DNA of 55,873 bases, counting the filler, from Streblomastix strix (lineage: Eukaryota), in the NCBI GenBank assembly GCA_008636045.1. It is 3 parts of 3 records of this genome, joined end to end, with 100 filler letters (N's around TTAATTAATTAA, not from the genome) between each part and the next. Parts side by side here need not be neighbours in the genome. Positions count along the whole stretch, not along the records: positions 1 to 18,560 come from SNRW01000595.1; 2 more parts are not named here. One strand, given 5' to 3'. The position numbers and the translations under genes are program-made. The notes beneath the pieces were generated by a model. The model saw nothing but the letters and a program-made list of their open reading frames with translations. It had not been told where the DNA came from and did not search any database. Shown here piece by piece: positions 1 to 55,873 of this stretch (position 1 is its first letter; each line of letters begins with the position of its first letter).

Positions 1-3000
1 GATTAGGAAAACCGAGCAAGAGTTTTGTTCAAATAATAACAGCAGACAAATAAAAAATCTAATAAAACTGAAGATGGGAAATAAAAAGGATTTTTTGCGA
101 GATTGTTTCATATTAAAACTGATGCAGAGAAGAAAGAAGAATAAGATCGAAAAGCAAAAGAAGAAGAAATAAAGAAAAACGAGAAAAATCGTGAATAGAA
201 ACTTAATAACAACGATAATTTGCAGAAAAACCGCGAAAAAGAGATTTCTGATGAGTTAAAAAAAGAAATTGCAGATAAAAAGAAGTTTGAAAAGGAAAAA
301 ATACTTAAAAAAAGAGAAAAATAGAAAAAGAAGCAAAAATTAATAGAAGAACAAAAATTAAAAGAGAAAGATGAGATAAATAAGAAGAATAAAGAAAAAG
401 AGAAAGAAAAAGAATAATTGAAATAGAAATAAAGAAGATAATCAAAAGATAAAACAAAAGGAAAAGAAAATGAGATGAATGAATAAGTGTTTGAAAATGA
501 CGATCAGACGGATTTGAATCAGTTGAATGAGAAAAAATTACAGATTTAATAGAAAATTGAAGAAATCGATAAGTAAGTGAAAGATATTGAAGAAAATCTG
601 AACTATTATTAGAAAAAGCAACAAATAGAGTTAGATTAAAATGATGTAGAATCTGATATACTGGATAGACATGATGGATTAAGTTCAATAGAACAAAAAA
701 TTGATGAGAATAAAATGCAAGTTTAGCAAATTGAAGAAGACGAATCCTAATAAGATAAAAAAGACCAACTTTAATAAGAATTTGATGAACTTCAGAAATA
801 GAAGAGTGACTTAGAAATGTAAATAGACGAATTATTGAGGAAAAAAGAAGATTTTGAAGCTGAATTGATAGAACTGGAAGATGATAAGACCAATTCATAA
901 CTTGAGAAAAATGAATTGGAAGAGCAGAAGAAAAAACTATAGAAAGAATTGGAAGGTATAGAATAGAAAGAAATTGAATTGAAAGAGAAAGAAAAAGATT
1001 AAGAATATAATAATGAAAAATTGAAACAGAAAAAACGTAGTCTAAGTAAACGTCACAGTTCAAGCGGAGATCCATCAAATAGATATCGTGAGAATGACGA
1101 TGATGAAGATGATGATGAAGATGAAGAAGATAAAGAATAAGAAAATAATGAAAAAGATGATGAACGTGAAAAAGAAGGATTAGTTAAGAAATTGATTAAA
1201 AAACTGAATAATAACCAAAATTAAGCAGATCCAGTCGTTGAAGTGCAAGATTCAGACCGTATTTTCACTGAAGATGAAGAAAAAAGAGATAAAAAATAAT
1301 TTAAACAAAGAAAATTGGGGAATTCAACTGAAAGAACTAATAACGAATCAGGAAACGAAGGATAAACAGAAAATGAATAAGAATAAGATCAAGATCAAGA
1401 TCAAGAACAAAATTTCAAGCAAGAATTAAAAACCCGAATAGAAAACGACCCAATAATGCGAGATCTTATCCGTGAAAGAAAGTAAATCTATTAAGAAGCT
1501 GAAGATGAAAAAAATCAAAGAAGAGATGATGAAGAGGAAGAGAGAAAATTGTAACAGTAATAATTGATGAGCGAAGATGAAAAAAGGAATATTGAGATTG
1601 AGAAGTATATTTTGAAAGAGAAGATTGGACCAGATGTGATTATATGTATGATGATTATTGAGTGGGGTGGAATGAATGAATTTAATATTCGAATTGAATC
1701 TGTATTTTAAAGATTTATATTACTTATATTTTATTTATATTTTATATTTATTTATATATTTATTTATTATGTTTGCTTTATTTATATATACACGCACAAG
1801 AAAAACTGACCGACATCATCAATAAACAAGCCATCAGCACCTCCTTACTCGCAGCACCTGCAGGCAACTACACACAGATGCTGAGCTCAATTCCATCATT
1901 TGACCCAAGCCAATCATCTGGGTAAATTGAAAGGTATGATCCGAGTATGACGCAAAGCACCGATGATCTGAAAAATTCGACTATCCATTTGCAGATGATG
2001 CAGTCGACTGCATAATTTAATCAGTAACAAGTTCAGTTTAATCAGTAAATATATGAGCAGTAAGTAGAAGATGCTACTCTGTTGTTAGCTTTGCTTTCAA
2101 AAGTTCCTGAAATCGCAGAATCTGTAATTAGAGAGAATCTCTTCTTTGTTGGATATTCACGTGAAGAGGAACAGCAGTAAAAAAAGAAAGAAGAAGATGA
2201 AGAAAATTAATTCACGAAGAAATATGGAAGAAAATTTAGACCTGCGGAAATGAAGTAATAATATTAGAAATATAAAGTACAGAAAAGATATGAGTAGTTT
2301 TTGTAGAAGCAGAGGTAGCCGAATTTGCTGTTCTACAGTGGGAAGGTTATACCGTTGAGGATGGATATAGGTTTGTGATGGATATATATTTAATTAATAT
2401 ATATTATTGTAAATATTGATAATTGGAATTAAATAGTAATAATTATTTTTTAATTATTACTTTATTTTTATTTTTATTTTTATTTTTATTTATTTTCCTA
2501 TTATTATTTTATCAGGATGCACATTTGCTATTCTTGCATCTACAATTGAAGCAATGGTGAAAGAAAGACCAGACACTGCACTCAAGAATTACAGGTATAT
2601 ATAAATATAGAGAAAATATTTTATTATTAGAAAAATGAATAATGCCAAATTTTTTTATAATTTGATTATTTTTGCTTTATCTTTTTGATATCTATTAGGA
2701 AAATGATTATTTTCCAGTTGTATAACGCTTCTAAGTACCTTAGTCAGCAAATAAAGAAGACTTATATAAGTTTGATTATTTTTATTTATTATAATTTATT
2801 TTTAATTAATTCATTTTTTATTATCCAATTTTCTTTTCCATTAAATTAATATAAATAAATACAGCTTCACCCTTCCAAGAACTCCTTGAATAGAATCCAC
2901 AATATCAGCAACAACAATTAGTCAAGAAACAGATGGATTATCACATTGAAAATGCAGTTGAAAGAAGGAAAGCCAATTTATCACTAAAATTAATCAACTC

Positions 3001-6000
3001 GTGTATTGCAACATGTATTAATAATGATAAGTTGGTTGTGTTTGCTGTGAAGAAGATGGGGGTATACAAATATATTTATTATTTTTATATTATATTAAAG
3101 AAAAAATATGAATTAAATGAATTAAGTTATTATTCAATTCATTTTTCAAATATTTGACTAATTTTTATTATTCCAATTTTATATATTCCCTTTTTCATTC
3201 TATCATCCTTCTTCCAGGTCCACATCTTAGGCGCATCCCGGTCTTTTAATTCCAAAATATTCCAGTCACATCCACTACTTCTATAACATATAATACCCAA
3301 AATATACCGAGAATTGGAATTGCTTCAATACTCGGCATTAATTCCAAATAGATATGCATTGTAAATCTTGGCTAAGAATAAAGAGGCACTTTTCGCTGCT
3401 GGAAGATGGAGAGAAGCGATGGAGTTGGGATATGAAGGTTAATTTTTTAATTAGATTTAGTTTATATATTGAAATATATTAGATTAATATTATATACAAA
3501 TATTGTGGATTTATTTTTAAATTAATTTATTATTTAATCCTTTATATATAATTCATATAAATTTACTTTTAATTTATATTATTTTAAATAGCTGATTCTC
3601 TTTTAGGAGGTAAAGGTCTTCTCCAGTTGAATGTCGAAGAAAGAGCAGCAATTGGACTTCTGAGAAGCCCCGGAACAAATTGGGGGAATAAGTATGAATA
3701 AATAAATAAAAAGAATAATTGAATAAATAAGGAAAATATTTTAGTATTTATTTTAATAATTTTTATTTAATTTAATTTTCATTATTATGTATTTATTATG
3801 TATTTATTATATATTTATTATGTATTTATTATATTTTCCTTATATTCCCTTTATATATTTCAATTTTCCAACACAGCTACGACCCCCAAATCGACAACAA
3901 TGCCGAACTCGATGACACAAACGTTGTCTACTTCAGAAACTACCAAACATTATATAATATAAGAGAACAACTTATCACTCTAACTCAAGAGAAACATCAG
4001 AATAGCTAATAATACCCAAAACCAACCGATCTTGACACTTTCATCATATATGGTAAGTATATTCCATATATACAAGCTATTATGTAGATCTTGCATCTGA
4101 TCGCGCTTTGCAATTATCAATCCTGGGCGAACGCGCTTATTGGCGCAACTTTCGTCGATTTCACGCGCAATATCACACAGGACATGGTCGAGATCGACAA
4201 CTTCAATGTTCTGGATGTATTCAAATATGTATACAGGTACTAACCGACTTTCTTAGATCTATAAAAAAAGGAGGAGGAATATTTAAAGCGGAAATAAGCA
4301 ATGCAGAGAAAATAAGGGAAAGATGGGAACCTATATATTGAGAAGTAGGATATATAGTAATAGCTTTAGAGATAGGAGGATAATTATAGGAATGAGCTGA
4401 GGTTTTAGAATAGATGTGTGGCTGATATGGAATATATATAAAATTTAATTGAAAAAAATATTTTATTTATAATAATTTTATAATATTTATAATTTTAATT
4501 ATAATTTTATAATTTTACTAATTTTTATTATTATTTTCATATTCTTCATATTAATATTCTTTTCCTCCAACAACCCCCCACAGAAGTGGAGCTCTCCCAA
4601 TCTTTAAACAGCCAGATCAGCTTACCAAAGGTATTTGTTGAGCCTTTTGCCTGGACAGCTTCTGAAGTAATGTAAGAATTAGCAGCCAATCAAGAAGAAG
4701 AAGAAGATGAGGAAGAAGAAGAAGAAGATTTGAGAGACGAAAATGAGAAGTCGAAAGGAGGTTTGTGTAGAGTGGGGGGTTGATATGGATGTATTTATGG
4801 GGATAAAAGTAAATATGAATGAAAATTAGTTTATTTTTATTTTAATATTAATACATTTTTGTTATTTATTTTTATTTTTTCCTATTGTTTTTATTATCAT
4901 TTATCCAATTACAGATTCCAAACGTGTTATGTAATTAGGTGATGATGATAATGGTGAAAGATGGACAATGAGAAGAGTATGACAATTAAATAATTAATAA
5001 ATTATTAATTAAAATTATTACAAATTCAATTTTTTATTTTATTTTACTTATAATATTCTGTATTTATTAAATTTAAATTAAATTTACTTATTTAATTAAA
5101 TTCTGTATTTTATTTATTTCTATTATTAAATTATATTAAATTCATTTATTCATTAATATACTTTTATTCATTAATTTACTTTTATGTATCACACATATCA
5201 GGTCCTCATGAAGGAGAGCATCCGCCGTGAGCGACACGCGCGCGAGGAGCAGCTTTTGAAAGACACTGAAAAAATGCTCAAAGAAAACATGAAAAGGCAC
5301 AAAAAAGAGCAGAAAGAAATAAAGCTTGAAAAAAGGAAGTAAAAGAAGAGGGAACGTGAATAAAAAGAGAAAGAAAGAAAATAATAAGAAGAAGAGAAAA
5401 GGAAAATTAAAGGGAATGTTCAATTAAAGGATGATTTTGAAGAAAAGATGGAGGCTAAAAAATTAAAAGGTTTATTTTTTCTTATATTAAAATTAATTAA
5501 TTATTATTGAATAAATTATTAAAATATATTTATAAATAAATAAATAAATGATTAAATAAATAAAAAATTGAATATTTTTACCTATAATAATTTATTCTTT
5601 TAAAAAATATTTATTTTTTTATTATTTATTTATTAATTATTAAAATTTTAGACATAAATTGTTAGAAATGGGAAAAGAAACTTGAAAAAGATGATAAAAA
5701 ACTGGAAAAATAATTGAAATAAAAAGTTATATAAGAAATAATTGTTGCAAAGGTATATTAATATATGATTTGTTAAATTATTAAATAAATAAATAAATAA
5801 TTAAATAAACTATTTATATATTAATTTAAATTTATTTTCTTTTACACATAACTTATTTATATGTCATTTTGTTTAGGTAAATAACTTCATGCTTGCTCTG
5901 AACTATGAATGGAGAAAAATGCAAAGACTTGGTTTGTAAAATATTTTATCTCAAATTATATTATATTATAATAATATTTTATTTCTGTATATTTTTCAAT

Positions 6001-9000
6001 TTATTTATTTATTTATAATAATTATAGGTATTGCTCGTGTCAAATATATTGATTGGAATTCAGATTTAATTACACAATACTCTGCTGTTGATGAACATAA
6101 TAGTGATTTGAGTGGTATGAAATATTAACAAAAAAAATAGATTAAAATTATTTGATAAAATTTTTTTTACTGATTTTTTAATAATAAATTTTTTTATATA
6201 TATTATTTTTCCATATAAATATCTCACTTATTAAACCACACATAATATATATAATATATACTTTTTTTTACTCATCATCAGGCATTCTCGACGACTCCCG
6301 CGAAGAGCGGATCTTAATCGAGAGCGTCAGAAAAGAATCCAAAAACAACAGTTTCCTATAAAAACTTCTCCCATTCCTCAACGATCGAGTCAAAATCGTT
6401 GAAAAAGAAAAAACGAAGGGAAAAGATAAAGTACTATAAAAAGAACTGTAATATGTCAGGTTCAAACCACTCCCCATAATGGAACAGCTAAAAGAACTTG
6501 ATAAGAAATAGAGAAATGATAAATTATAGAGTACGGAATTAATTAACTCTAAATATGTATATTCTTCATTAATCCCATTAAATTTAAAATAGTTTTTATC
6601 TAATCCACCATCTTCGCTTACTTTTGAGGAGAACAAGCTTCCAATTCTGACAGTGCAGCGTGTTGAAATGTTTAATAACACACATATGAATTTAAATATC
6701 AATATAAATCTGAACTATATAATGCCATGCAATATATTCCACAGTGCAAATATAATTCCATACAAGATCCAATCTAAAGATCGATAAGATCTTAGAATTC
6801 AGAACTTCGCTAAAAAATCACAAATCAAGATCTTTGGCAAACTCTTCGGGTATTTTACTTCACACAACTTTAAATGGTATGCAAATCGTTTCAACTTAGA
6901 GGAGAAAGAAAAATTCGAAGATTTTCAAGCTGGTATTGAAGATCCCAATAAAGAAGATGATAACTAAAGGCAGAATCAAAATCGTGAGAATGATGATGAA
7001 GAATAAGATAATAATAATGCATAGATTGTAAGATAACAATAGTATCAAGAAGACGAACAACCTACTATGGATGTTGATTATGAAGATAAAAATAAGCATC
7101 ACTGGTATTACAATCCGAATAATCGGATAGTTCCACACGATTGCGAGATTGTTTTGGGGCATTCAATTGATGATGAATTCACATACACTAGATAGATACT
7201 ATTCTAATAGAAAGCTAAACAATTGGACGAAGAGATAAAAAAAATTGATGAGGAAATCCGCAATAAGAAAATTAATGGAGAATTTACAGATGATCTGGAA
7301 GATAAGCTGGAAATAATCAACGAATAGAAGTAGAAAATTAGTTACTATCAGAAATAAGATAAGTTTGATTTTATCAGAAGAGAACTGGATTATAATCATC
7401 AGAACATGAGAGCAGTGACAGATGATGATCCAATTGCTGGGTCTATTTCATAGTGTGAGATAAATATATAGAGAAATATTGTAAATATTTTTTATTCATT
7501 TATTTTTATATATATTATATAAATATTCGAATTATATGTTATATAAATATTCTAATTATATATTATATTAATACATATAAATTATTATTAAATTTTTATT
7601 ATATAAATATACCAATAATTTTTATTTAATATTCTAATTATTTAATTTTCCTACAACTTTTCTTAATCAGTGCAAAAGGCCGTTCGCTCTCGCTCTCAAT
7701 ACGCAGAGCCATACGCCACTGGATTAACATTCAATCTTCACGCACACAAGAGAAGATTAACAACAATTAACTGGAAATTAGATTACTAGAACCAAAAAGA
7801 AAGAAGGATTAGCCTAAACCATTATAATCGCGAAAAGAGAAAATATTGTAAGAGTATCAGAATTAAATGCCACCTCAGGATAAATTGTAGTAGGGTGGAC
7901 ATATTCCTGGGTAACAGGAGATATAGCAGTATTGGTTGATAGCTATTAAGGTTAGAGGAAAAATAAAATAAAATAAAAAGATAAAATAAAGAATAAATAA
8001 TATATTAATATTAATATTAATATTATTTTATTTTATTTAATAGTATTTTATAATTGATTTTAATTTATTAATAATTTCTTATATAAAATTCTTATTCATT
8101 ATTACTATTATTATTAAATTAGGGTTCAACACCAGCTCCAGATTCTGCTTATCCAAACTTTTCATAACTTTTCCCGAATCATAATTTCTCCGAAACTCCG
8201 CTTTTGTTGCATCAGTTGTCTTTGTTTATGTTGTCTAAGATCCCACAAGTGAGGAAAATGGCTTTGATTGCATTAGGTTTGACAGATATATTCGAATTAT
8301 ATATTAAATTAATATTATATATATTATATTAATGTAATAAATTATATTTTTATATATTTAAATTATTATTATTTTTTATTTCTATTTTATTCATTAATAA
8401 TTATTATTTAGGTTCCTTCCTCTCACATGAAGAGAAAGTAGATGACTGGGTTTATGGACATACAAACAGACCACTCATTGTTGTAATGTTCATTGCAGGT
8501 ATGAAAATAATAAAAAAAGATAAAGCAAGATATTTAATTAATATGACTGTTTAATTCAAATTTATTTATAGATTGTTTATTATTCTAATTTATTTAATTA
8601 TTATCAACTAACTCTTATTATATAATTACATTTCTATTTAAATCATATCCAAACCTTTAACCAGGTTCCCGCATCTGCGAATCCCTCCGTTTATGCCTGG
8701 AACTCTACGGCGATCGTGACCCAGAAACAACCACTCTTATAATTGACTGTATAACAAAGCTAATTTAAGCATATGTTGGAATAGGGAAAAAATCCCTATA
8801 GAAATAATTGGATACGTAAAATATGAGTTTGTAAGGTGGAGATGATGGTTAGAATAATGAGGAGAATAATGGAGGGAATGATGGTGTGTGGAAATTTGAA
8901 TATGAATGAAAAAATAAATTGAAATTTATATTTGAATATACATTTTTTAAAATAATAATATTTATACTAATAATTTATTTCTTTTTCTTTATTTCATATA

Positions 9001-11001
9001 TTATTCACTCATAAATTAATTAACTCATTAATTCATCCATTCAGAGGATATGGACGACGACGAAGTGCAGCGCCTTCGTCAGATCAAGATCGAGAACCAA
9101 GCCGAAGATCTGATGAAGAACAAAGACAAAAATTAATCCAATAGCAAAAAACAGGCAATTTTCTCCAAGAAACAAAAATCTGACAAGAAAAAGAAGGACG
9201 ATTTGGGAAATGTGATTTTTATAGGAATTGATGATGAGGAAGAAGATGAAAATCAAAATAAAGATCAGAATAAGAACAGAAGATTAAAAAATATCAACGA
9301 TTTGAACGCGATGCGTAAAGCGCATGAAACTAGGATTGACCTTAGATATGACAACATCGATTTGAAACTATTAGAGATTGAATCTGGTGGCGATGCTTCA
9401 AAAACTGGCAACTACATGATCCAAGCCGTACAAACATAAACAACATCACAACCAGATAATGCTGAAAGTCCAACCAAGGATAAATAAAAAACAAAAAATA
9501 AGAAAAACAAAAGGAAATAAAAGAAATAAGAAGATAGCTCAAATGAGGATAGTTCAGATGAAGACGATGATGAAGATAGCAGCGACAGTGAAAACAAAAA
9601 GCGGAATCATCAATTAGTGGATTCATCTGGTTTCTTCCTTGAATACGAGTTCAAGATCACTGCTCTTGAGGTTATATTAGCTGAGCCTTTTGCAACTCCA
9701 CTCTGCATTTTCTTGATCTCGTAATATACGACTATTGACAACTGCGAGATTTTGTGTCTGTTGATCAAATTTGCGAAAGAATCGGTGGTCAAAATTGTGT
9801 GCAGGACTCCTGTTGCTTTCACTGTGATGCAGGCGCTGCATTCACCAAAGAGGAAGTTGGTGTGTTTGTGTATTTTGGAAAATATGGAGAATATATAGTG
9901 AATAATTGAAATGGAATAAAATTATCATTATTTTTCTATTTTTATTTAATTATATTAAATAACTCTATTTATTTATTTATTTATTTATTTATTTATTTCT
10001 ATTTCTTATTAATAATTTCTATTTATTTATTATTATTAATTATTATTATAATCATATATATCCAATAAGGCCTGTGATGCACTCTGTCGTATGATCTATG
10101 TAGCCTTATAACTTGATGACCGTGTTGGATGGTTGAATATCGCCATATGCGCCATTAGACCTTTGTTGTTTGACTTCACTGTATGAATTATTAATGAAAT
10201 TAATATATATAATTAAATAATAATATTTATATAATATTAAATTATTTTTATTTATTTTAATTTATTTCTTTCTTATTATATATTTCTTATTATTATCCAT
10301 TAATATTTATTATTATTATTTTACTTATATATACCCAATCCCGTATTCTAAATCCAATTCCCACCCAGTGTGTCGAAGAAGTGTCCTTACTCCTCAAATA
10401 CTACTCAAACCATCAGTTATCCAGATAAATAGAAGAAGATGAATCAAATATCATATAATCATACCACTTCATTGTCCCTGAGATTGATGACCATATTTAC
10501 GATTATGAGGATGAAGTAAAGAAGGAGAAGGCAGGGAATAAGTATTTGTTTATATATTTATATATAATAGTAGTTATATAATATTTTTGTTATATTTAAA
10601 ATTAAAATTAATTTTTTAATTATTTAATTTATATTTTTATACATTTATACATTTATACATTTACTCTTAATTAAATTATTAATCTTGTCTTATATTCATT
10701 TACTCATATATTATCAACCAAACATACTTGCACCCCAGAGAACCGCTCAGCAGCACACGCACCAACATGGGCACATACCGCAGAAGCAGATAACAACAAC
10801 AACAACAATAATAATAAGGCGATGATGAATCGCAGGTTGGAACATACCGCACAAACCGCTCTTAATAACAGAAGATGGCCGACAAAGAGAAACAATTCAT
10901 GAGCAACATACACAGGCAGAATTCGCAGTACTCTGATAATGGAGATGACGAAAAAAGAGACCCTGCATATATTGGGGGAACTTTCAGATCTAGAAATAGA
11001 G

Positions 11002-11039
<38 letters not shown>

Positions 11040-11324
11040 TAATAATATTAATAATAATAGCACTAATAATAACAAGGATAAGGATGGCCAGGATAATAGC
11101 GTGGTGTATAAGGCCCAACTGCATAAGCACCTTCACATAATTAGCATCTATATTAAGACGATTAGAAAAAAAATATATAGAAATAACTATAGCGAGATAA
11201 AGAGAGGTAAGAAAAAGAAGCTAAGAATAAAGCTAAATTGGATGAAGAATTAAAGAAGAAATAACAGGAAAAGGAGAAGAAGATTGCTGAGGAAGCGAGG
11301 AAGAAGAGAAATAGGAGGAAATGA
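1..11324 (+). CDS. Very large multi-exon hypothetical protein (5'-truncated): charged coiled-coil segments, HEAT/ARM/TPR-like helical segments, C-terminal poly-Gln
   Basis: With TAA/TAG=Gln, frame 1 is open from 1 to 1645. The frame was followed by hand through 22 GT-AG introns (e.g. 1646-1800, 4416-4583, 4761-4914, 7951-8122, 10542-10738) with consistent phases to TGA at 11322-11324. Segments such as ALFAAGRWREAMELGYE and LSKIPQVRKMALIALG look helical-repeat-like. No family recognised. Confidence 0.85.
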
Positions 11325-11971
11325 ATGTTAGTAATTGATTGGAAATTGGGGGTTTAGGATTTTGGGTTAAAAATTAGATTGGATGGGAGAAATATTGGAA
11401 ATTAGATTAAAAGGTGTATTTGATAGTAGGGTTGTTTAATTGAGTCTTATGTGTAGGAGGGAATATGTATATTTATTTGTCAATTGAATAATTGGCGAAT
11501 TATTTGCGATTAGGTTGGGGAAAGGTAACTTTTTTTTCGTTTTACTTCTTTTTTATAGACGTAATATATTACTTTTTTATTTGATAATCAATCCATTTGG
11601 CACTGATTAATGTAGATTCATTTCATATAGTATTATCATGCAATTCTATAAAAACTATAATAATTAAGAAAAAAAAATCATTTTTTTATAGTCTGATATT
11701 TTTTATAGTAAATTTTTATTTTTAAATTCAAGTTGTTAGAAGATTTTATGAATTGAAAGTAAAATAAAGTGAATAAAAAGATAAGATTTTGAGAAATAAA
11801 GTAAGTGAAGATGAAAATACATATTAAATAAACCAGCATATAGTAGTAAATCACAGTGAAAGTTTCACTATATTTCTACCCTCTAAGGTAGTTTGCCATG
11901 ATTTAATGCTTATTTCTTCATCATTTCTTTAATTTTATTATAAATTACCCCATGCTATGATATATTTCCTT

Positions 11972-13243
11972 TCACAAAATTACACACCCGTCCTTTTTCA
12001 GGCAAACACTGATAGCATTGTCAAATGCTTCTTTTACACCTAAAATTAATAATATCATTACATAAATAGAATGTTAATATAATTCAATATTATATATTAC
12101 CCATATATATAACTAAATACATAACATGATATATTAACAAAACCTTGATTGTATTTTGCACTGCACTCAACATAGTTTGATGCCCCAATGTCCTTGGCCA
12201 TGTTGTAGCCTTCTTCGACTCTCACAAACTCATGCTGTGTAGTGGGTGTGATCTATTATATATTATATATGAATAAGTTTATATTATTATATAATAATAA
12301 ATTAATAAATATAAAAAATTATCAATTTATTATTATTTAAAATTAAATGAATTTATTATCAAACTGATTTTCTCAGATCTCCTTTAGTTCCAACAAGAAC
12401 TATTTTAGTCTTTGGGCCAAGACTGGAATATTAATTAATATATATGTGTGTGTTTAATAAGTGATTAATTAATTAATAAATATTAGCTTTCGGAATGCAA
12501 ACCGTTTTTTAATGTCTGGTACCCATTTAGATTTCACATTTAGGAAAGTGTCTCTCCTGTTAATGGAGAAGCAGACAATGAAGACATCAGTGTTTTCGTA
12601 TGAAAATGGTCGAATTGCATCGTAATCTTCTTATCCTGAATGATAGAAATAAAAATTAAAAGGAAAATATGGTTTGTATTTTAATTTGAAATTAAATATC
12701 GAACCAGCAGTATCCCACAAAGACAGCAGCACTCTATCACGGCCAACTGGCACTCTGCATGTATAGTTATCAAATACACTACATAGAATAAATGAAAAAT
12801 ATAAAATTAAAAATAAGGCTAGAGTAAATAAAAAGGAAACAAACGCTAAAAGTTGAGTATATCACATGAAAAAGGAGGCAAATAAAATTATTCACAAATA
12901 AATAACAAATAAGATGATATAAATAAGAAATAATTCATATACTTGGAACGTACTCTACAAAGAATTGAGAAATGGAAGGTAAAATAAATAAATATTTAAT
13001 AATCAAATTTACGTGCGTTAGAGTTTACCTTCGGGATATTTATTGTTCGCATATACTATATAAAGTGGAATAATTTAAGAAAATAAATAGAATAATAGAA
13101 AAAAAGTAGCACACCCATCAAAAGACATGTTTTACCGACTGCACCGTCACCGACAATGACAAGTTTTAACTGTTATAAAAATTTGAAAAATGAAATGGAA
13201 TAGCCATAAATAATATGATTACAACCTTTGTTTCAGTAGCCAT
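11972..13243 (-). CDS. Rho/Rac-family small GTPase, 9 exons including a 12-nt exon (12943-12954) and a predicted 1-nt exon (12845)
   Basis: Spliced translation: [43 protein letters not shown]...[31 protein letters not shown]...KWVPDI...[11 protein letters not shown]...YVECSAK...VKEAFDNAI...GCVIL-TGA. Has G1-G5 boxes and a CaaL prenylation box. Confidence 0.96.
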
Positions 13244-13621
13244 TTTTGCTTTATTTGTTATTTTACTTAAAAGTAATTTTTTTTTAAAGTATGAAAATTG
13301 AAAAACGATGCATACAATTGTAAAAATGACAAATATTGAATATTAAATAAATAAAATGATGATTTTATTACTGAATAATTTAAACAATCCATTTATCACC
13401 ATTCGAAAACATTTTTAAATAGAATGATTTTCCAATTAATCTTGCAGTAAAATTTGTTTTATTTTAATAAATAATTATTATAATAAGTATAATTTATTTT
13501 AGTAACAAATGATCAACTGTTGTGATTTGACTGTTTCGTTAATTATATATAAACACTTCGATAAAAAAAATTCGATTTTCTGCTTGAAATTAGTAAAGTT
13601 TCACACGTTGCGATCGTTTCT

Positions 13622-15693
13622 TCATAAGAATAGAATGACAGTGACACGTAATTTTCCATTTTTCACGAAGCCACTTCCTTCTTTCAAACATTATGGTTTG
13701 AGTTTGTACCAAGTTCCCTGATCAGGAGCTAATTGGTTGAATGTATGTTTAATTTCTTTATAAATTATTATAAAATTTTTAAAATATTTATAGAATTAAA
13801 AAAGTAATATGAAAATAAACCTATTACTACTGGATCTTATTTCTCTTAATGAATCAAAATCTGAAACTTGAACTTCTGGCTAAATTCTTCACCATGCTCA
13901 TCAATACTCTTCAGAAATACCAAAAAAGTTATAAATAATAATAAAATAAGTGAATAAGTTTAATATTAAAAATTATATTTTAATCATTTTTATACCTTCA
14001 ATACGAGGAATATTCCTTGTAGTTCTTATTATTAGTAATAACCTTTTTCTATTTTATGTACAAGAAGGATGTTCCTGAGAAAGGTAATATAAATTGAAAA
14101 AAATAATATGAAAATAAATATATTATTGCTCATACCATTTAAAGCCAAACGCATCAAAAGTCTCACTTTCATTGCGATCTGATAATGGATCGATTGAAAT
14201 TGTCAAATCATGTTAAATATTTGCATCACTTGGTTACTTTTGAGATGAATGTTCATTTTGATGAGTTTCATATTAAGAGAAAGGAATTTTCAAATGGCAG
14301 GAATCACATTCGATAAGAGACATATCAGGAGTATTCAATGAAGATTTTGTTTTAGGTTGAACAATTGGAAATGGATAAATTTAGCTCTTTTTATTAATTT
14401 TCTTATCCGATTGAACAATTGGAAATGGAATAATCTAATTCTGTTGATGCTATTAAGCAGTTTTATTTAATTATTATATCACTTCAAATTGTTATTAAAC
14501 TTATTCTTTTTATTGTTATTCATTTCTTAGTTGATCTTCGACTTATTTCATTCGTTCTTCATCTTCAATCTTCTGACGTTCATTCAAATGAGCTCTTTCT
14601 TCTGCTTTAATTTTTTCTTATTCAGCAACTCTAATTTATTCCTATAAATGTCTTATCTGTTCTTAATCCTCATGAACAGTAGTTTCTGAATCAATCTTTT
14701 AATCTTCCTAATCTTCTTCTTCATCTTCTAAAACTGCAAGAATTTATTTTATTGAATTTCTTAATTACCTTGGCGGGTTAAGTAATTTGACTTTATTTAA
14801 ACAAATTCTCAATTTAGATGTTTTCTTTACAGCTTCTGAACTCGTTAGAATCAGTTTTGATACCACTTCCAATATATTCAACAAGATGTTTTATTATATT
14901 TGGGAATGTTATTGAATTGATTATGATTAAGCTGAAGGAAATGCATTATCCAATGCTTGTGCTGATTTGCCAAATATATTAACTTCCAACAAACAAGAAA
15001 TTGTGTGTGGTTGTCTTTTTATCGCATCAAGAAGTGCCTATTTTCCCAAATCAGATATTCTTTCATCCTCATTCTGGTTAAATTAATAATTTAAATTAAA
15101 TTAAAAATAAAAATAAAAATGAGACATACGAATAAAAATTCAATCAATAGTTGAAGAAACGTTTTCCAGTCAACTTATGATTCAGATTCTGTTCCAATCT
15201 GATGAAGTATGTGTAATATTGCATCACAGAGGGTCTATATTATTAAAATATTATAATCTGAATAAAGAAAATTAAAAATGTTTTCATACACGAATTCTTG
15301 GATTATCAGTTTCAAATATCAGTGAAGAAACAGATTAAATAATTCCACTTGAACACAAAATCTCTTTTATTTCGCTATGTTGCACTGAATAAAAGATATA
15401 AAATAATAAATAAAATAATAATAAAATAAATGTCCGTACATCTGAAGGATAATATAACTAGGCTCTCTAATGACTGAATTTTAGCTGCATCGGATATTTC
15501 TGGAAGTAATAAACGATGTGCATGTTGAACAATCTGCGACTTTTTCTGAAATAAAATATTAAATATGATTTATAAATTAAAACTTTGAGATAATCAATAT
15601 TTATACCTCGCCACTAGAAAGAACTTGTATTCTCATTGATTCAGAAGGATTTGTACTGCTTATTCCTCTTAAAGAAATATCAGAATCAGTCAT
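13622..15693 (-). CDS. ARM-like N-terminus + coiled coil + C-terminal MATH (TRAF-like) domain protein
   Basis: ATG at 15693 and phase-consistent GT-AG introns. The C-terminus SETFDAFGFKWNILL...GIFLVL...KFQILI...HTFNQLAPDQG...GFVKNGKLRVTVILFL-TGA matches the MATH beta-sandwich pattern by eye. Confidence 0.75.
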
Positions 15694-16391
15694 CGATTTT
15701 CTAAATATCTTAAATAAGTATAAAAATTATTTATTTTTTAATAAAAAAATTAAATTATAAATATATTAAAATAATAATATAATATAATCAATAAAATAGT
15801 AGTATTAATGTAGTAAAAGTGAATTTAAAATTAATTAACTGAATTCCTGAAATAGATCGGGTATGTTATTTAAAGTTGCATATATAATATATTAAATGAT
15901 GATAATATGCAAAATATATTGAACCATCAGAAAATACCTGATTAAACGCGTTCAAAACGTGTGGCGTAAATTGAATCTCGAAACTTATTCGAACTTTGAT
16001 AATGTATGAGCAGCATCAAAAGGGAATTATATGGTTATATATATAATGATTTTAGTAGTGAAAAATTAGGCGTAAGGTTGTAGCTATGAAAAAACAAGCC
16101 AAATTAAATTATATCAATGTTTAACCTTACATAAGACTTTTTGCTATTCATTTTGCCTCTATTAGTTGAGAAAATATAATTATAATGATTATTGAATTAA
16201 TGAATGTTATAGAAATGTTCGGATAATGCCTTAACAATTGAGAAAATGTCAAATTTTATTTAATTGAATATTCCAATTAATTTCACATCTAGATATTAAA
16301 TCAATTAATTGATTTTTCGCAATTCTATTAATTTTTCAAATATTATTAAATTTATTCATAAATTTGATTCTACGATGATAGTTTTCTATAA

Positions 16392-16733
16392 ATGACTCAG
16401 TTGTTGACTATGAAACTAAATCGTACAACTGGACTCGGAACCCTCACACTCGGGTAATAAACATTGCGATGTGGAGGGAAACCTGGATTCGATTATCCAG
16501 CTGACACAACTATAAATGCCTCTGATCGTAAAGGTACCGTTAAAAGCCGAGAATACGATGCAACTATGCCATATGCAGTCCTCTGGATTGGACAAAGAGG
16601 TGTTTATTTCCACGAATGGCCGAATCTAGAAGCATCGTCAGGATGTATTCATCTGTTGCCAGGCGATGCTTAAACTTTCTATGAACAGTGGATCACGCGT
16701 AAGACGAGAATTGTCTTCTCTTGGACCAATTGA
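16392..16733 (+). CDS. L,D-transpeptidase catalytic (YkuD-like) domain protein, 113 aa, intronless, bacterial type
   Basis: MTQLLTMKLNRTTGLGTLTLGQQTLRCGGKPGFDYPADTTINASDRKGTVKSREYDATMPYAVLWIGQRGVYFHEWPNLEASSGCIHLLPGDAQTFYEQWITRKTRIVFSWTN. The SREY..MPY...FH...S.GCIHL...A..FY pattern is that of small YkuD proteins. Three in-frame TAA codons are read as Gln. Confidence 0.75.
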
Positions 16734-16857
16734 TGGATAAATTCTTTCAATGTGAAAGCTTTTTGACAATTAAAATTATTCGAAATATATTGGACTGTAT
16801 AATAAAATATTGAATAATAACTCACTTTATTAACTTTGCTAAATAAAACTATATTTT

Positions 16858-17458
16858 TATTGTTATTCATTTCTTAATTGATCTTCGACTTGTTTCATTC
16901 GTTCTTCAACTTCAAAGTTCTTACGTTTATTTAAATGAGCTCTTTCTTCTGCCATATTTTTTTCTAATTCAGCAATTCAATTATCTTATCTGTTCAAAAG
17001 TGTTTTAACTCAATTGCATATAAAAAAGATTATGATAAATATGAAGAAACTGCCATTCATACAGAATTAATAGAGGAAATTGAAGAATCTGTCATTCATA
17101 CAGAATTAATAGAAGAAATATTTCCAATTGGTAACATCTTCACGTAAATCAGAAGTAATACATATGAAACTCAGAGCTGATATTGTTTTTGCCATTTATT
17201 ACATCATAATTTCAATGTTTTAATCAAAAAGCTGTTATTGACCAACTTCTCCATATTTTCCTTCCTTTGCATAATTTTAAAGATTCTTTATTAATATTCC
17301 AACATTTCTTTCTAAAACTTCTATGCATAAATCTAGTATTTCATTTTCAATTATTTAATTCTTCATGATCTGAATATTATTTTAGCTGAACTATTTTCAA
17401 TTTTACTTAAGTCTGCTATCTGTAGAGAAGTTGTATTAGCCTAAAATCTTTTATCCAT
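16858..17458 (-). pseudogene. Degenerate chimeric gene fragment: ARM-like family piece plus a diverged copy of the coiled-coil segment of the MATH gene
   Basis: About 16858-16975 is a diverged copy of about 14511-14628. The upstream frame IIENEILDLCIEVLERNVGILIKNL resembles LIDENILKICVDIIVQNGKALVNKL of the gene at 44105-45592. Frames are broken by TGA. A 39-nt tandem duplication lies at about 17052-17120. Confidence 0.45.
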
Positions 17459-17637
17459 CGCAAATAAAAACACAAAATAGCTAATTTTTGGAATATAACT
17501 TACAATTTTCATTAATATAAATCTTCTTATTATAATTAACATATATAAATTTAAAGAGGTTGAAAAAATATTTATTTGATTTCTTACTTTTTATTAGCTC
17601 ATTAATTTTTTTATTTTTATTTTTTTTAGAAAAATCA

Positions 17638-18560
17638 ATGATTTCGCACTCATCTCTTGTTATATTAATTTTATGTACCACTGATGCTTTTGCCAGACTA
17701 ACTTTTCACCCGAAAGTAAACGCTGACTCACTTTCTGAAACATTTGACTGGCGCACCAGGTCAAATGAAACAGGAACCGCATTTACGTCAGTTCTCGATC
17801 AAGAATCTTGTGGCAGGTATATTATTTTATTAATAACTCAATTTATTATATCAGTCATTTATTCATTATAGTTGTTGGGCCTTCTCTACTGTAGATGCTG
17901 CTAGAGTTTGGCTGTAAATAGCAACGAACGGAACAGACGAAGCTGTAAAAGCGCCAATGTCTCCGTAACATTAATTAGATTGTGATAAGCGTAATATAAA
18001 ATATTATGGAGAAAATGTAACATAAGGTATATAATTAATATAATTAATAATTTTATTTATTTTTTATTTAAAGCTGGTTGTGATGGCGGTTTTATTCTCA
18101 CATCATACAGAGGTATTGAATTTTTAAATTACTCATATTTAAATTATATTATTAATATTGAAACTTCCATATTCCACAGAGCTAGCTTGGGAACATGGTA
18201 CATTAGAGAATCAATGTCAGCCATACACTGGAAGATAACAGTCAAAATGCGCAAACAATTGCACAACAACAACTGCAAACTCTAAAATATACAAGAAATG
18301 GTCAAATGGAACAAACTACTATAGACCAATCAACTTCTGGTTATATGATTACAATGCAGACGTCGACTATAGTTCTGTTGGAAAGGCTAACAAAGAGTAC
18401 AATTCGAATACAAATGCATAGTATGTATGGCCATTGGTCAAACCAAGCCACATTACTGATGTTTTTAAGGAGATCATCTACAACTGCGGTCCTTCCAGTG
18501 TAACATTTTATGCATGTGACTCATTGTCATACTATTATTCAGGTTCTGGTGAGAATATAA
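17638..18560 (+). CDS. Papain-family (C1A, cathepsin B-like) cysteine protease, 3'-truncated at contig end
   Basis: Hydrophobic signal peptide, then FDWR, DQESCGS|CWAFS (catalytic Cys motif split by an intron), SPQHQLDCD, GCDGG, CQPY, IIYNCGP. Three GT-AG introns. Confidence 0.9.
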
Positions 18561-18660
18561 NNNNNNNNNNNNNNNNNNNNNNNNNNNNNNNNNNNNNNNN
18601 NNNNTTAATTAATTAANNNNNNNNNNNNNNNNNNNNNNNNNNNNNNNNNNNNNNNNNNNN
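18561..18660. other. Artificial contig linker (N run with TTAATTAATTAA)
   Basis: 100-nt block of Ns around TTAATTAATTAA (18605-18616). Genes on both sides are truncated at it. Confidence 0.97.
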
Positions 18661-19168
18661 AATTCGTGGTGTTGTTATTGCAGCCAAACTTGCGATGATA
18701 CCAATTCGTCTTGGTTATTGGGGTAACAATATTGGATAACCTCATACAGTGGCAATGAAGGTAACAGGGAAATGTGGATCTGTAAGAGTGCGTCTTGTAC
18801 CAGCACCTCGTGGAACAGGATTAGTTGCTGCTCCTGTATCAAAGAAGTTGTTGAGTATTTCTGGTGTCGAAGATGTATTTACTTCCTCATCTGGTAAGAC
18901 CAATACAATGGGTAACTTCATCAAGGCAACCTTCTTTGCATTGTCAGAGACATACAAATATCTGACTCCTGATCTTTGGCCTAAACATGCTTTCCCACAA
19001 ACGCCATACCAGGAGAATTCATAGTGGCTTGCAGATGAAATATATAATAATAATATTGAATTAAAAGATGAATTTTTGTTCGAACAGCGGGAAAAATTGG
19101 GCTTTTATTATTTGTTAATTTTTCACGATACAGAAAGCTTGAGAAACAAATTAATGGAGTAAATATGA
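18661..19168 (+). CDS. RPS2: 40S ribosomal protein S2 (uS5), C-terminal part, 5'-truncated, with a possible C-terminal extension
   Basis: [52 protein letters not shown]...[27 protein letters not shown]...PYQE. First in-frame TGA at 19166-19168. Confidence 0.92.
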
Positions 19169-37218: not shown

Positions 37219-37318
37219 NNNNNNNNNNNNNNNNNNNNNNNNNNNNNNNNNNNNNNNNNNNNTTAATTAATTAANNNNNNNNNNNNNNNNNNNNNNNNNN
37301 NNNNNNNNNNNNNNNNNN
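37219..37318. other. Artificial contig linker (N run with TTAATTAATTAA)
   Basis: Same 100-nt linker as at 18561-18660. Confidence 0.97.
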
Positions 37319-37444
<126 letters not shown>

Positions 37445-37500
37445 CTTATTATTGTTTCATTTTACTTTTTTAATTTATAATTATTACAATTTATTTTTAG

Positions 37501-37637
37501 ATTATAGATCGTAATGATGTACTCAAGCCTCTTTAGGTATTTAAATTCATAATATTAATAACATATTCTATATTAAATATTCTTTATTCTTAAGATTGAT
37601 CCATATCTTCTTGACAGAGAAGTATCTCATATATCAG
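37501..37637 (+). pseudogene. Two orphan exons resembling the segment preceding an ABC-ATPase signature (ABCE1/RLI-like)
   Basis: AG/GT-bounded exons 37501-37536 and 37595-37637 splice to IIDRNDVLKPLQIDPYLLDREVSHISG. The expected next exon (GGE.QR) was not found. Mirror copy at 55555-55691. Confidence 0.35.
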
Positions 37638-37945
37638 GTATATATCGAATATTATTGCAATTATATTAATTTATATTTATATTCATTATCAAACTATATA
37701 TAACATATTTAATCATAAAGAATAAATAAACTATATCTAAGAAGGATTCGAATTGAGTATAGTTAGCTAATATAATGTTTAAATTTTTGTTAATTTTCTA
37801 TGATAATATGAAATAAATTATAAATTTTCTGAATTTATTACAAAATTTGATTATTTAATAATTTATTGCATAAAATTATTGAAGTTAAATGAATAAAATT
37901 TAGTTAATTAATAATTTTAATTAAAATAATGATAATATTCATTAT

Positions 37946-40286
37946 TCACCAGCTATTTCTGAACAGTAGAGGCTGAACGGATCTTGTTCCTACTATTCTT
38001 AATTAGTTTGATGGTTTAGGTTTGCTTAAAAGAGGAGATATTTTATTTTAAATACTTAAAATTATTTAAAGTGGTTCATTATATTCTATTTCAATAAATT
38101 TATTTTCACCTTATTCGATATATTTTGCTGCTCTAATTTCTCCTTATATTTATTTTAAACATAAGTAGTTCATTTGATCTTCAATACAGAGAATTGATGC
38201 TAATCTTTCTCCTGCTGTTCGTTCATATCTTATAAATTATAATTTTGTATTAATTCCAATTGAATCAATCTCTTATATTGTTTAATTAAGTCCTCAATAG
38301 AATTTATTTCTGATTTCATACTTTTTCTACTAATTTTCCTTTTAAGATACCAGAAATGCTAATCACAATAAGATTTTGAATGTCCAGGAACAGAGAAGGC
38401 TTAAGTTATTTCATATTTCTTTGAAATATTTGAAGATGGAGATAATAATAAATGTTAAAAAATCGATGATCTAAAAGGAGTTCCATTGTCAGAATAGAAG
38501 TATACTTTTTAGAATGGTAGTGGAAAGGTTTGCATTAAGTGCTCAAAACAATCTTTTACAAAAATAGCATCTTTATTCTAACAATAACTAATATAATTAT
38601 ATATCATTTATTTAATTTGTTATTATTATTTATATTATATTATAAATGTTAATAAAGAGACGGATATATATTAATAGAAGTCTGGAGATAATTAAAATCT
38701 TTTAATTCCAAGGCGAAGATTTTCGGAAAAATCAGATAAAATTATGTATTCATTTTAATTTAGATTGTTTAATAAATGTTATTATTATTATCTTTAAATT
38801 ATTTTATCTTCTCTATGTTATATTGCACTAATTAATTATTCATTTTGCTATTGTGTGTTCTAAATATCCTATTCAGAATTCATAAAGGTTTTCATCAATT
38901 AACAAATAATGCAAAGATCAGTTGATCTTTTTGGATATTAGATTCTACCTTTTAACATAATCTTAAATAATGTGAATGATACTGCTGATTTGCCAGTTCG
39001 ATTTACGTAAAGGATGTACAATTCTTCCCTGGTATATATTGAAATTAATACATTATATTTCTCATATTTAGTTGTATTCATTTAATATTTCCTTTTTGGA
39101 TGTAATTATTCATTACTATTTAGATTATTTTAAATATTTGGGGTTAAAATAGAAAACATTGAATTGCTTTACTGTTTCATTTAAATTTAACTTTTGATAT
39201 TTACTACTGTTTCAATTTGATTAATTTAATTATTTTCATTATAAGATTCAGAAGTCTTTAGTTAAGATTTTTATTTATTTAATAACATTGGAGAATAATT
39301 TGGAGTTGATTAATGATAATCCTATTTCACAACGCTTTTATTTGATGGAGGAGTTGCAACAAATGATTCAGGGATTTAATTTTAAATTTATTTTAAGATG
39401 TTAAATTTGATGATATTATATTAAAATTATTTTATTTAGAAGTAGAATTTTATGATTATTTTAAATTTAATTAACTTGTTTATTCATTTACGTTTTACTT
39501 ATATTATTTAGATTATATATTTCTTCTTGCATTTAATAAATTATTATAAATGTTTGTTGATTTTTTTTTATTTCTTTCGTTTATTTTCATTATTTATTCT
39601 TAACTTTTATTAATATCAAAATCTTTATTCATTAAGTTTTAATCAAAATTTTATAATTAATCATTATCATTTAATTCTTAATTATTTTAATCATTATCTT
39701 TAATTACACTTTCATCTTTATCTTTAATCATTTCTTATTAATTTATTTAAACTTCTTATTCATTAAATTAATGTTTCAATATCCAAATAATTATGTTTGA
39801 TAGCTCACAGTATGGCAATATTGTTTAAATTATTTCATTAAATTTTTTTTAATTATAATTACTTTTATGATTAATTTTTGTTTCTTATTATAATTGCCAT
39901 CTCTTTGCATCTCTTATTGTATAAAAGTGCAAATGAAATCCATTTTCATTTAATGTTCTAGTTTTTTATTCTAATTAATATATTAATAGTAGAAATTTTT
40001 ATTTATGTTTTCCATTTAATTCTTTGTAATAATCTGATGCATATTATAAAAATGAATTTTTTTCATTATTAATTTGATTGTTCATATCTTTCTTAATCGA
40101 TTTACCAATTTTAGTGTAGTTAAGAATAAATTGCAACAAAGATTTAGTGTTATTCTTAGTAATTTTGTTTAAAATTTAAATTAATCTTTTAGAAAAATAT
40201 TTTCTAGTACTGAATTTTAATTCTGAAAAGCTTTTATTAGTTGCTTTACCTAATACAAATGTTAGTAGTTTATCTGTTAGAATCAT
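37946..40286 (-). mobile_element. Frameshifted Sola-like DDD transposase (left-arm copy)
   Basis: Reverse complement of 52906-55246. Confidence 0.7.
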
Positions 40287-42538
40287 TTTCTTTTGTTATC
40301 CTATTTAGAATAGTAATAAATTCGCAAATAAAAGTTTTTTTTAAATAAATTTAAAAATAAATGAATTAATTTTAAAAATTTTAAATTTATGATTAACCAA
40401 ATATATAATTTAAATTCTAGTGTAATTATCTTACTTATATTTATGTGAACATTTAATTTGCTATATTATAATTTAATTTTTCAAATTGTATAATTAGAAA
40501 ATTGAATTATTTTGAAATAGTTGAAAACTCTAATATTCAATGTTCAATTTTAATAATACAATAATATTTATAAATGATATTAGTGAATTATATGAAATTT
40601 ATTAATTATTTAAATTATAATAGATTAATAAATTAAATACAATTTTGTTAATTTTGAAATGGAGAAATAAATAAAAAATTTGGGGTTATTTTTATTATAT
40701 TAAAATTCGATTAAATTACCATTAAATTAATATAAATAAAAGTTATTAGACTGTTTTTGCTAGTTACCAAAAATACATGATTTTATGGGAAAGAAAAAAT
40801 CTGACTCCATTTGTGTAAAACTCTGTTTATTTTGATCCAAATATTTTTCTTATTTTACAGTTACAATTTCAAATTGAACTGCTACATTTTCATCGTCTTC
40901 AAACCCAATACATTCTTTTCCTGAGAATCTGTTTCTTTCATTTGAGATCAATACTCCATTTACTTTTACATTGGAATAAAGTTAACAGTCATCTTTCATT
41001 TTTAATCTTGTTTTCTAATCACCTAGAATTTCACTACAAATTTAAATACAAAATTCATCCTTTCTAATTTATACAAGAAGCAAACGAATGAAACAATAAA
41101 AATAATTTATGTAACTGAAAGTTTAAAAAGATGAATGCCATTGATTTTTTTACGATTTCGTGCAATAATTCTTTAGATTATTAAGTATTCCAATTAATAA
41201 TTCTACTATTTGTGGCTGGTTATTCAGATCTTGTTAGTGCATATTATATTCTATTGATTTAGATCACTTAATGTCTTTCTTTTAATAATACTTTTTAGCT
41301 CTTCAATATATTAACATATACGCTCAATTTCTTCCTGCTACTCCTCTAAATGTTTTGATGAATACGTTCTTTTGTTTTTATAAATTTTTTTTGTAATCCA
41401 TAGAATAATTATTAACAGAAAAAATTGGTAAATGAACTATTTTCAACAAATTATTTCATTTATTTTTATGTAATAAAAAATAATGAGATGCAATGGATTT
41501 TAAATGTACATATACCATTGATTAATTAAATAGATTGAATATTTTTAGATATTGTTGTGATGAAAAATAGTTAAAATGAGTTTAATTTAATTATTATGAA
41601 GCTGCGATTTCTCGCTTAAGAATAAATTTGTTTAAAACTGATTATTAATTTGATGATGGAATAATCGGTTTTTATCATGTGTTAAAAACAGAATTTGGGT
41701 TTTATTTACTATAAACTGGAAAATGTTTATTTGATGGTTGATTATTTTTTTTTTATTTTTTTTATTTTGTTTTTTCTAATTTGCTATTAATCAAAATAAA
41801 TAGAAATAAATTTAAATTGAATTAATATTAAGAATGAAATTTATAGAATTAAACAAATATACTGTTTAGTGGATAACAATTAAAAATAAAAAGTAAACTA
41901 AATTTGAATTAAATGAAATAACTTATGTAAAATTATTAAAAATCAACTAAGACCGATATCTTAGACAAGTGCAAAAAACTTTAAAAATTCAAAGTTCATA
42001 ACTCGATTTTACCAATTAACTAAATATAAATTTGCTACGATATGGGCTTTTTCAATCATTATTTAATAATTTTATATAATTATATATTCAATATTATTTA
42101 AAAGTTATTGTGCGAAGTATATTTATAATATTATAAAATGTGGCTAAACAACATTTCAGAACACTAAGTAGATGTTTGTTGACTATATCATTTAATTTAT
42201 ACAACTATTTCTCAAGAAATTTAGTTACTTCAAACTTTATTCGCTTCTTAATAGCTCACTCAAAATATTTCACATAATATCACTTCTTGCAAATGCTACA
42301 AATTACCAAATATAATTTTAACAAGTTTGTAGACAACTTCTGTAGGTGAGTCACTTAAATTTATACAAGTTTCATCATAAACATGATGTTTCCTATCCAG
42401 AAAAATAGATTTTTTTTCTTTTAAAAACGCTCTTTTCTGCCATTTCCACATATTTTATGTTTCTAATAACCTACTTTTTATTCTTTCTCTTATAATTATC
42501 ATATTTATTTTTTTTATTTTTAAAAGAATACGGATAAA

Positions 42539-43222
42539 ATGGAATCCGACTATTTAATCTAAAATGCAGCGAATGCCATAATTTCTTTCACTGATTCATA
42601 CACAAAGATCAAGCAAGGAAAACAAAATGAGTAATAAAAATCGGATTCTATATCTTCTTTGACTGAAATTTCTTCTTGTCTTAAATCAATAAATGATCAA
42701 ATCCGGAATATTAATACGAGTAAATAAGTGATTCAGATTCCGAAGATTCATCAATCACTATCAACACTTTCATTATACAAAGTTGGTAATCACATCGGCT
42801 AAGAAATAGATCGATAGATATTTACAGTCAGAAGTAGCAGTAGAGACTGTCTTAGTTCGATTCGATTCTTTGGAGATGAATAAGTACAATCAGAACTTGT
42901 TAATTAAGGATTTGGAAGAATGATTTGCATTTCATTCTGCACAGCTGGAGGCGTCGGCGAAGAACAGGATGAGGAGATTGAACATGGACTATATCGCATC
43001 TACAGGTTCCTCAAAGATCTACATGAAGGTAGATATTATAGGAAGCATATCTCCCAACCACTTCCATTACTTGTTCGAAATACTGAAGAACAAATAGAAG
43101 AAGAAGGAGCATATGAAGAAATCGAAGCTTAAATGAAAAATAAAGGATATTATGGTGAAATCAAGTGTAGGGCAAACGATGCCAAAGCAGTAACACTTAA
43201 CCACTTCATTATAACAATCTGA
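42539..43222 (+). CDS. Intronless 227-aa hypothetical protein of an ARM-like lineage-expanded family
   Basis: ATG 42539 to TGA 43220-43222 under TAR=Gln. Motifs SFCTAGGVGEEQDEEI and EEQIEEEGAYEEIEAQ. Confidence 0.85.
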
Positions 43223-44104
43223 ATATGACAAGTTTTGCATATTCAGTTTTTTCTATTTTTCATTTTTGAACAACAGTTAGTTATTCATTTCATGCTTAAT
43301 AGTATAATCTATTTTTTAGTAAATTAATTTTATTATAAATATCCAATTATAATTAATCAATATTTTAAGAGATTTTATTTAAATTTCTGATCTGCGCATT
43401 CAACCGAATTCGAAACAATGTTTGTAAGTGATTAATGTAATGATATATAAATACTTGGTTAAATATTGTATAATGAATATATTTATAATTTACCTTTGTT
43501 TGAGAAAACTTCATAGCTAAATATCTCTTTAATTGCTTAATATTTTACTAATTTTTAAATATAATATTATATATACCTAATTTATATATTAATTTCTTAA
43601 GTTAGAACAACAATCAATTTAATTAACTATTATTTTTTTTTCTTTTTTTTCATAAAAGCTGCTTTATTTCTATATACAATTAGTATAATTTTATATAATT
43701 GTTTATTTTTACATAAAATAATATTTTTGATATGATTTTTATATTTAAATTACTCATCTTACATTAATTTATTACTCAAAATATTTATTTTATTTTCTTT
43801 CTTTTTATTTATATTACGATATCAGATTTATAAGGTGTTATGCCTTCTGCTGAATAAGACACTTGATGTAGACGCTAATAAATTATAAGAATATGATTAA
43901 TATTATAAATAATTAACCTATTTTCCTCACTATCATATTTAAAATAATACTTATAATTTAAAACTCTAAATTCTTATATAATTTTATAATTTACATTTGT
44001 TTTATATCAATATTCACAATTTTGCTATTATTAATTTAATATGTACTTTTTATTAAAATAATTTTTATGATAAATCAGATAATTGAATCCAACGTAATTA
44101 CGCG

Positions 44105-47508: not shown

Positions 47509-47599
47509 TTTACAAATCATCTTTATTGGTTTTGTTTGATGGATTTTTCATTTTCTGTTCAACTCAAATTTCAGTTTCTTTTTCTACATCATTTAATTA

Positions 47600-55747: not shown

Positions 55748-55873
<126 letters not shown>

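Follow-up and report, generated by a model that had tools for sequence, protein, structure and literature searches.

A Rho-family gene of Streblomastix strix, a protist of the termite gut, raises the question of how its messenger RNA obtains the middle base of the switch-I Thr codon. In Rho GTPases this Thr coordinates Mg2+. The two exons that contribute to the codon are separated by a gap of 164 nt and are not in compatible phase. The earlier note on this DNA had proposed that the codon is completed by an exon of a single nucleotide. We examined the proposal in the window, i.e. the whole stretch of DNA that was analysed (55,873 nt). N-linkers at 18561-18660 and 37219-37318 join three separate contigs in the window. 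The contig of the Rho gene covers 1-18560 and genes past that position are thus not its true neighbours. Inspection by eye showed an intron-containing gene at about 17640-18560 on the plus strand, which we take to be a papain-like protease (CWAFS motif) truncated by the contig end, and at approximately 18661-19040 (plus strand) presumably the last part of a gene for a uS5-like ribosomal protein. A stretch of ~100 nt is present twice in diverged form, at about 14510-14610 and 16860-16955 (also by eye). The third segment (37319-55873) is a near-perfect inverted repeat with arms of 9,014 nt that agree at 99.99%; it most likely reflects an artefactual fold-back in amplification or assembly.

The Rho gene lies on the minus strand and comprises 10 exons between 13243 and 11972 (Table 1), which form a single open frame under NCBI code 6. 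TAA and TAG are read as Gln, which together with the name of the record supports an oxymonad source, and one TAA sits on the conserved Gln of GQEDY. All marks of the Rho family are present in the spliced model and align with the homologues: the P-loop, switch I (YxPTVFDNY), WDTAGQE, TKxD, CSA and the CaaX end. For exon 7 the best relatives in the PDB were Cdc42 (E 3e-13) and Rac1 (6e-12), and the homologue lists likewise contain Cdc42, Rac and Rho proteins. Judged by its sequence, the gene is that of an intact Rho-family GTPase of S. strix, for which GTP and Mg2+ binding and hydrolysis are predicted. Introns 4 and 5 have complete GT..AG ends and GC contents of 0.21 and 0.20, respectively; the other seven introns of the gene measure 56-112 nt.

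Table 1. Exons of the Rho gene and the introns on either side of exon 5. A slash marks a splice junction here and in the text; X2 is a spliced contig and P0002 a public protein model.
Feature	Position	Strand	Description	Basis
Exon 1	13226..13243	minus	18 nt coding, ATG at 13243	Model; within contig X2, where the 56-nt intron 1 is absent
Exon 2	13115..13169	minus	55 nt, P-loop GDGAVGKT	Model and X2
Exon 3	13029..13055	minus	27 nt	Model and X2; synonymous X2 change at 13054
Exon 4	12943..12954	minus	12 nt, last base A opens the switch-I Thr codon	Same 12 letters in X2, in the gap between exons 3 and 6
Intron 4	12846..12942	minus	97 nt, phase 1, GTATAT..TAG	Model; none at 5/5 genomic Rho loci with the phase-2 intron; likely gained later
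Exon 5	12845..12845	minus	One nucleotide C, middle base of A/C/T	Sole 3n+1 AG..GT segment; C in X2
Intron 5	12779..12844	minus	66 nt, phase 2, GTTTGT..TAG	Model; position common to distant eukaryotes
Exon 6	12705..12778	minus	74 nt, T + VFDNY...WDTAG	Model and X2
Exon 7	12503..12635	minus	133 nt, switch II onward, TAA read as Gln	Model and X2
Exon 8	12365..12422	minus	58 nt, GTKGD	Model; loose end of X2 enters exon 8; fits P0002
Exon 9	12144..12252	minus	109 nt	Model; fits P0002
Exon 10	11972..12039	minus	68 nt to TGA, CaaX end CVIL	Model; fits P0002

The boundaries that had been claimed for exon 4, the C, both introns and the start of exon 6 agree with Table 1 to the base, and the mismatch is real: exon 4 ends in phase 1 at a GT and exon 6 requires phase 2. 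Two internal AGs (12847 and 12820) occur in the gap and yield five segments between an AG and a GT or GC, with lengths of 1, 5, 26, 63 and 36 nt. Frame repair by the AG-C-GT at 12845 holds, as the 1-nt segment is the only one of the five with a length of 3n+1. The sequence at this position is TAG-C-GT, so that a single base separates the canonical acceptor AG from the canonical donor GT. With the C the open frame reaches 184 aa; if the C is left out it runs into a stop at codon 96. The donor of intron 5 (GTTTGT) shares five of six bases with the GTATG(T) consensus described for S. strix (PMC1501061). A gap of 164 nt does not in itself speak for two introns, since S. strix introns range from 46 to 229 nt (PMC1501061, Table 2).

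We compared the motif to 20,000 shuffles of the gap. A YAG-C-GT leaving both introns with ~40 nt or more appeared in 0.55% of the mononucleotide and 0.66% of the dinucleotide shuffles, an AG-N-GT with any base in 5-6%, and any YAG-(1, 4, 7 or 10 nt)-GT in about 15%. The other seven introns of the gene (554 nt) contained no YAG-..-GT motif of the kind tested. At these chance rates the motif taken alone is suggestive, and it is the spliced contig, in which exactly a C is found, that decides. Other arrangements of the gap were rejected. Behind the internal AG at 12820 there is a C but no donor, and nested routes through this AG give none either. The intron ends do not match a U12 or AT-AC intron, and M. 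exilis is described as having no minor spliceosome (PMC6759080). A stwintron does not fit, as both introns have full GT..AG ends in the DNA and the intervening base is kept in the product. A scan of the window for further exons of 1-3 nt returned four candidates, YAG-N(2-3)-GT motifs within intron-like sequence, at 8572 (plus), 23885 (minus), 39072 (plus) and 43277 (plus); its filter missed 12845 itself, and we give the scan no weight.

Three sequencing runs were compared with the gene (X1, X2 and X3), none of them on record as RNA. The contig comparison spanned 12505-13250, so that the structure of exons 8-10 is taken from the model and from P0002. For X2 we obtained one contig of 806 nt with a depth of 44.3, which covers the exon bins and not a single intron bin. 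Intron 1 (56 nt) and intron 6 (69 nt) are skipped exactly, and intron 2 is skipped next to a single substitution. The contig also jumps from 12778 (exon 6) to 13029 (exon 3), with 13 letters in between that spell, in minus-strand orientation, all 12 bases of exon 4 and then a C. The predicted junction of exon 4, C and exon 6 is therefore present in this assembled contig of a run not on record as RNA; neither of the junctions that would speak against it, one encoding Ser and one shifting the frame, was seen there. In the DNA of the window the C is contiguous with neither neighbouring exon, and the other X2 junctions are GT-AG with no inserted letters. The contig extends upstream of the ATG, and at its other side a loose end goes into exon 8. 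Relative to the window we counted four other letters in the piece of exon 7, three in the piece of exon 6 and one at 13054; all three differences that could be placed in frame are synonymous. With ~8 differing exon positions X2 is not the allele of the window and stems from another allele or strain. As a single contig it reports the main splice form and is silent on intermediates. For X1 we found a contig of 3,029 nt (depth 12.5) in which all 746 compared bases are identical to the window, with 0 other letters and 0 gaps. This DNA contig has no extra base at either exon edge, though it may be the source of the window and hence is not independent. X3 placed 0 contigs on 12505-13250.

It had also been predicted that gene finders would mis-model the gene, and the public model bears this out. 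Exon 7 matches the putative RhoA of S. strix (P0002, KAA6400239.1) at 100%, and P0002 is the gene of the window spliced from a GT 16 nt into intron 3 directly to exon 6, with exons 4 and 5 skipped. This mis-splice turns EYVP into GKLQR and destroys switch I. The 90% cluster of P0002 has one member, so that protein collection holds no corrected version. Among 208 homologues, 204 carry P-T-[VI]-F-[DE]; the four that do not are three oxymonad genome models (P0002, P0003 and P0026) and an insect protein, which has A-T. P0003 is an S. strix paralogue (62% identical) that reads YVPSIVFDNY, and extending exon 4 of the window by 4 nt into intron 4 yields the identical YVPSIVFDNY. As the letters of P0003 match the run-on of exon 4, a phase-1 donor and a phase-2 acceptor like those of the window are likely present in the paralogue too; from the shape of these model errors it likely shares the one-base exon. 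P0026 (Blattamonas RhoA) has 20 extra residues, Y to S, after the Thr, an insertion in the protein model that would fit a retained phase-2 intron of 60 nt. Two M. exilis models and a Trimastix protein are normal at switch I.

A tree of 30 rows (26 picked from the 208 homologues and four spliced models) joined the protein of the window and P0003 as sisters (99/93), within a group of oxymonads that also contains P0025, P0026 and P0121 (89/86). This group can be set beside the oxymonad Rac1 orthogroup q2003829 (PMC10703272), which lists MONOS_13320 (Rac1a), MONOS_16771, one Blattamonas and two Streblomastix genes. The q2003829 rows that we found in supplementary file 3 of that paper contain no remark on exon structure.

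The data show that exons 4 and 6 differ in phase, that the gap offers one AG-C-GT, that a spliced contig contains the C and that the public model is wrong. We put the probability that the C of the spliced copy comes from a one-base exon at 12845, and that the Thr codon A/C/T is built from three exons, at about 0.92. The X2 allele differs at ~8 exon positions and its genomic copy was not seen, so the expressed allele might carry a C at the edge of exon 4 (CCAAC/GT) and one intron of 164 nt, while the copy in the window lost the base through mutation or assembly error and its AG-C-GT arose by chance. The homologues do read exactly CCAAC/GT, the window is of draft quality, with linkers of N and one contig that folds back on itself, and an intron of 164 nt lies within the S. 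strix range (PMC1501061). However, X1 equals the window base for base, the remainder of the gene is intact, the model of the paralogue has the same phase mismatch, and a coincidence of 0.6% would have to supply the correct base. We regard a lost base as improbable.

A contig gives the product and not the origin of its C, which could in principle have been inserted by RNA editing after removal of one 164-nt intron, or have arisen by non-canonical splicing and a subsequent base change. We give this very little weight: a canonical AG-C-GT already supplies the correct base, the remaining X2 junctions are free of inserted letters, and we know of no case of C insertion in nuclear transcripts. The run type of X2 is unrecorded, and an intronless DNA copy (a retrocopy or a paralogue) would be uninformative on the splicing of the gene in the window. 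We consider this just as far-fetched as editing, as the introns are missing at their exact boundaries, bases upstream of the ATG are included, no intron bin is covered, as should be the case for transcript contigs, and a retrocopy would itself derive from an mRNA with the C.

We then compared the one-base exon with Rho genes of other eukaryotes. Metagenome contigs were scanned by a pattern for a phase-2 acceptor in the Thr codon, which selects for that intron and cannot give its frequency: of the 40 loci obtained, 33 were chance matches and seven were Rho genes, five of them genomic (three distinct genes) and two intronless. The two intronless genes read Ser-V-F-D-N-Y, and none of the 40 loci was an oxymonad locus. 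All five genomic loci read CCA AC/GT..AG/N: an intron separates the second from the third base of the Thr codon, the first and second bases are uninterrupted, and the AG-N-GT one-base exon is absent from all five of these non-oxymonad loci. One of them (L007, modelled to 119 aa) groups with Naegleria and Willaertia proteins (99/99), and another (L033) shares the phase-1 intron in the glycine of DTAG. In L028, a Rho gene of another eukaryote, a 5-nt exon (CCAAC, 866-870) lies between introns of 36 and 33 nt in the same switch-I loop. Intron 2 of the window (13114-13056) follows the first base of a Val codon and is spliced in X2; the corresponding intron in L007 (789-827) and L015 stands just before that codon. 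The positions in the window and in the heterolobosean-like gene are thus one base apart, a candidate intron shift.

Intron 5 is present at all five loci, none of which has intron 4. Distant eukaryotes thus have intron 5 as well, and of the two introns the fourth was likely added. Many ancient introns have been reported for S. strix (PMC1501061). The one-base exon likely arose by gain of intron 4 one base upstream of the old intron 5, a polarity that rests on three genes, which are few for telling gain from loss. This gain likely preceded the split of the two Streblomastix paralogues. A wider scenario is speculative and we would not bet on it: the exon may be old and conserved in the Rac1 clade of oxymonads, in Blattamonas as well as in the two Streblomastix paralogues, stemming from an intron that landed one base upstream of an intron common to heteroloboseans and other eukaryotes. 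It would then represent the two-intron intermediate of a one-base shift with no coding change, and intron 2 a finished shift.

For the one-base exon at 12845 we propose that the major spliceosome removes the 97-nt and the 66-nt GT-AG introns successively by intron definition. An acceptor and a donor one base apart cannot be co-occupied across the exon, so that each short AT-rich intron would be defined across itself and removed in turn. Removing intron 4 first would create a 13-nt exon ending in CCAAC/GT, as in the homologues. On account of transcription order and of this restored context we lean slightly towards an order in which intron 4 would leave before intron 5. In the potato invertase case cited in PMC4674806 it is the downstream intron that is removed first, so the Rho gene may follow either order. 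Whichever intron leaves first, its removal would consume one of the two sites that skipping needs. Inclusion of exon 5 is likely constitutive, because skipping would shift the frame to the early stop. Skipped transcripts would bear this premature stop, and UPF1 has been reported in S. strix (PMC1501061).

One-nucleotide exons had been called extremely rare in the earlier note. They are rare, but they have already been described in plants and fungi (APC11, VPS55 and CYP621A), and the Rho exon is a further case of these known spliceosomal exons. It resembles that of Arabidopsis APC11 (Guo and Liu 2015, PMC4674806), which is also internal, frame-essential, flanked by canonical GT-AG introns and unannotated, and for which the authors prefer a model of intron definition in which one intron is spliced out after the other. 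However, the APC11 exon was proven by mutating the base, whereas the Rho exon is known from a spliced contig, belongs to another gene and supergroup and comes after exons of 27 and 12 nt. The 1-nt microexons of plant APC11 and VPS55 (Yu et al. 2022, PMC8831610) are likewise absent from reference annotations, resulting in wrong proteins. They are conserved across land plants at the DNA level, whereas conservation of the Rho exon is inferred from protein models, with indirect signs in the errors of two of them (P0003 and P0026); the VPS55 microexon is alternatively spliced in some lineages (PMC8831610). In Fusarium CYP621A (Nelson and Syed 2026, PMC12940212) the exon also provides the middle base of a conserved codon, a phase-1/phase-2 mismatch was the clue and there is transcript support. 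That case rests on 20 or more aligned orthologues and 18 reads, and concerns a fungal P450 rather than a metamonad Rho GTPase. Stwintrons (Fekete et al. 2017, PMC5587772) share the two splicing reactions at one spot and have been offered as an explanation of orthologous introns that differ in position by one base. Their inner intron, however, splits a donor, branch point or acceptor with no exon base in between, whereas the Rho gene keeps one base. A one-base exon in placozoan mitochondria is reportedly described in PMC5436844. Among the matches listed by our search, whose scope excluded most subscription papers, we found no report of a one-base exon from an oxymonad or at this Rho codon, and no mention of a one-base exon in the available parts of PMC10703272, PMC8767320 and PMC6759080. 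The Rho exon is likely the first metamonad case of a spliceosomal one-base exon.

In public models the effector loop is wrong for one Streblomastix gene of the Rac1 clade (P0002) and looks mis-spliced exactly at the switch-I Thr for its paralogue (P0003) and for the Blattamonas gene (P0026); all three models resemble degenerate GTPases. Land plants and Fusarium are the only sources from which we found reports of transcript-supported one-base exons, and the addition of a metamonad suggests that the major spliceosome is generally able to splice them. The origin of the exon can also be read from its flanking introns, as one is common to distant eukaryotes and the other is not, so that intron gain beside an existing intron and one-base shifts become testable on oxymonad genomes.
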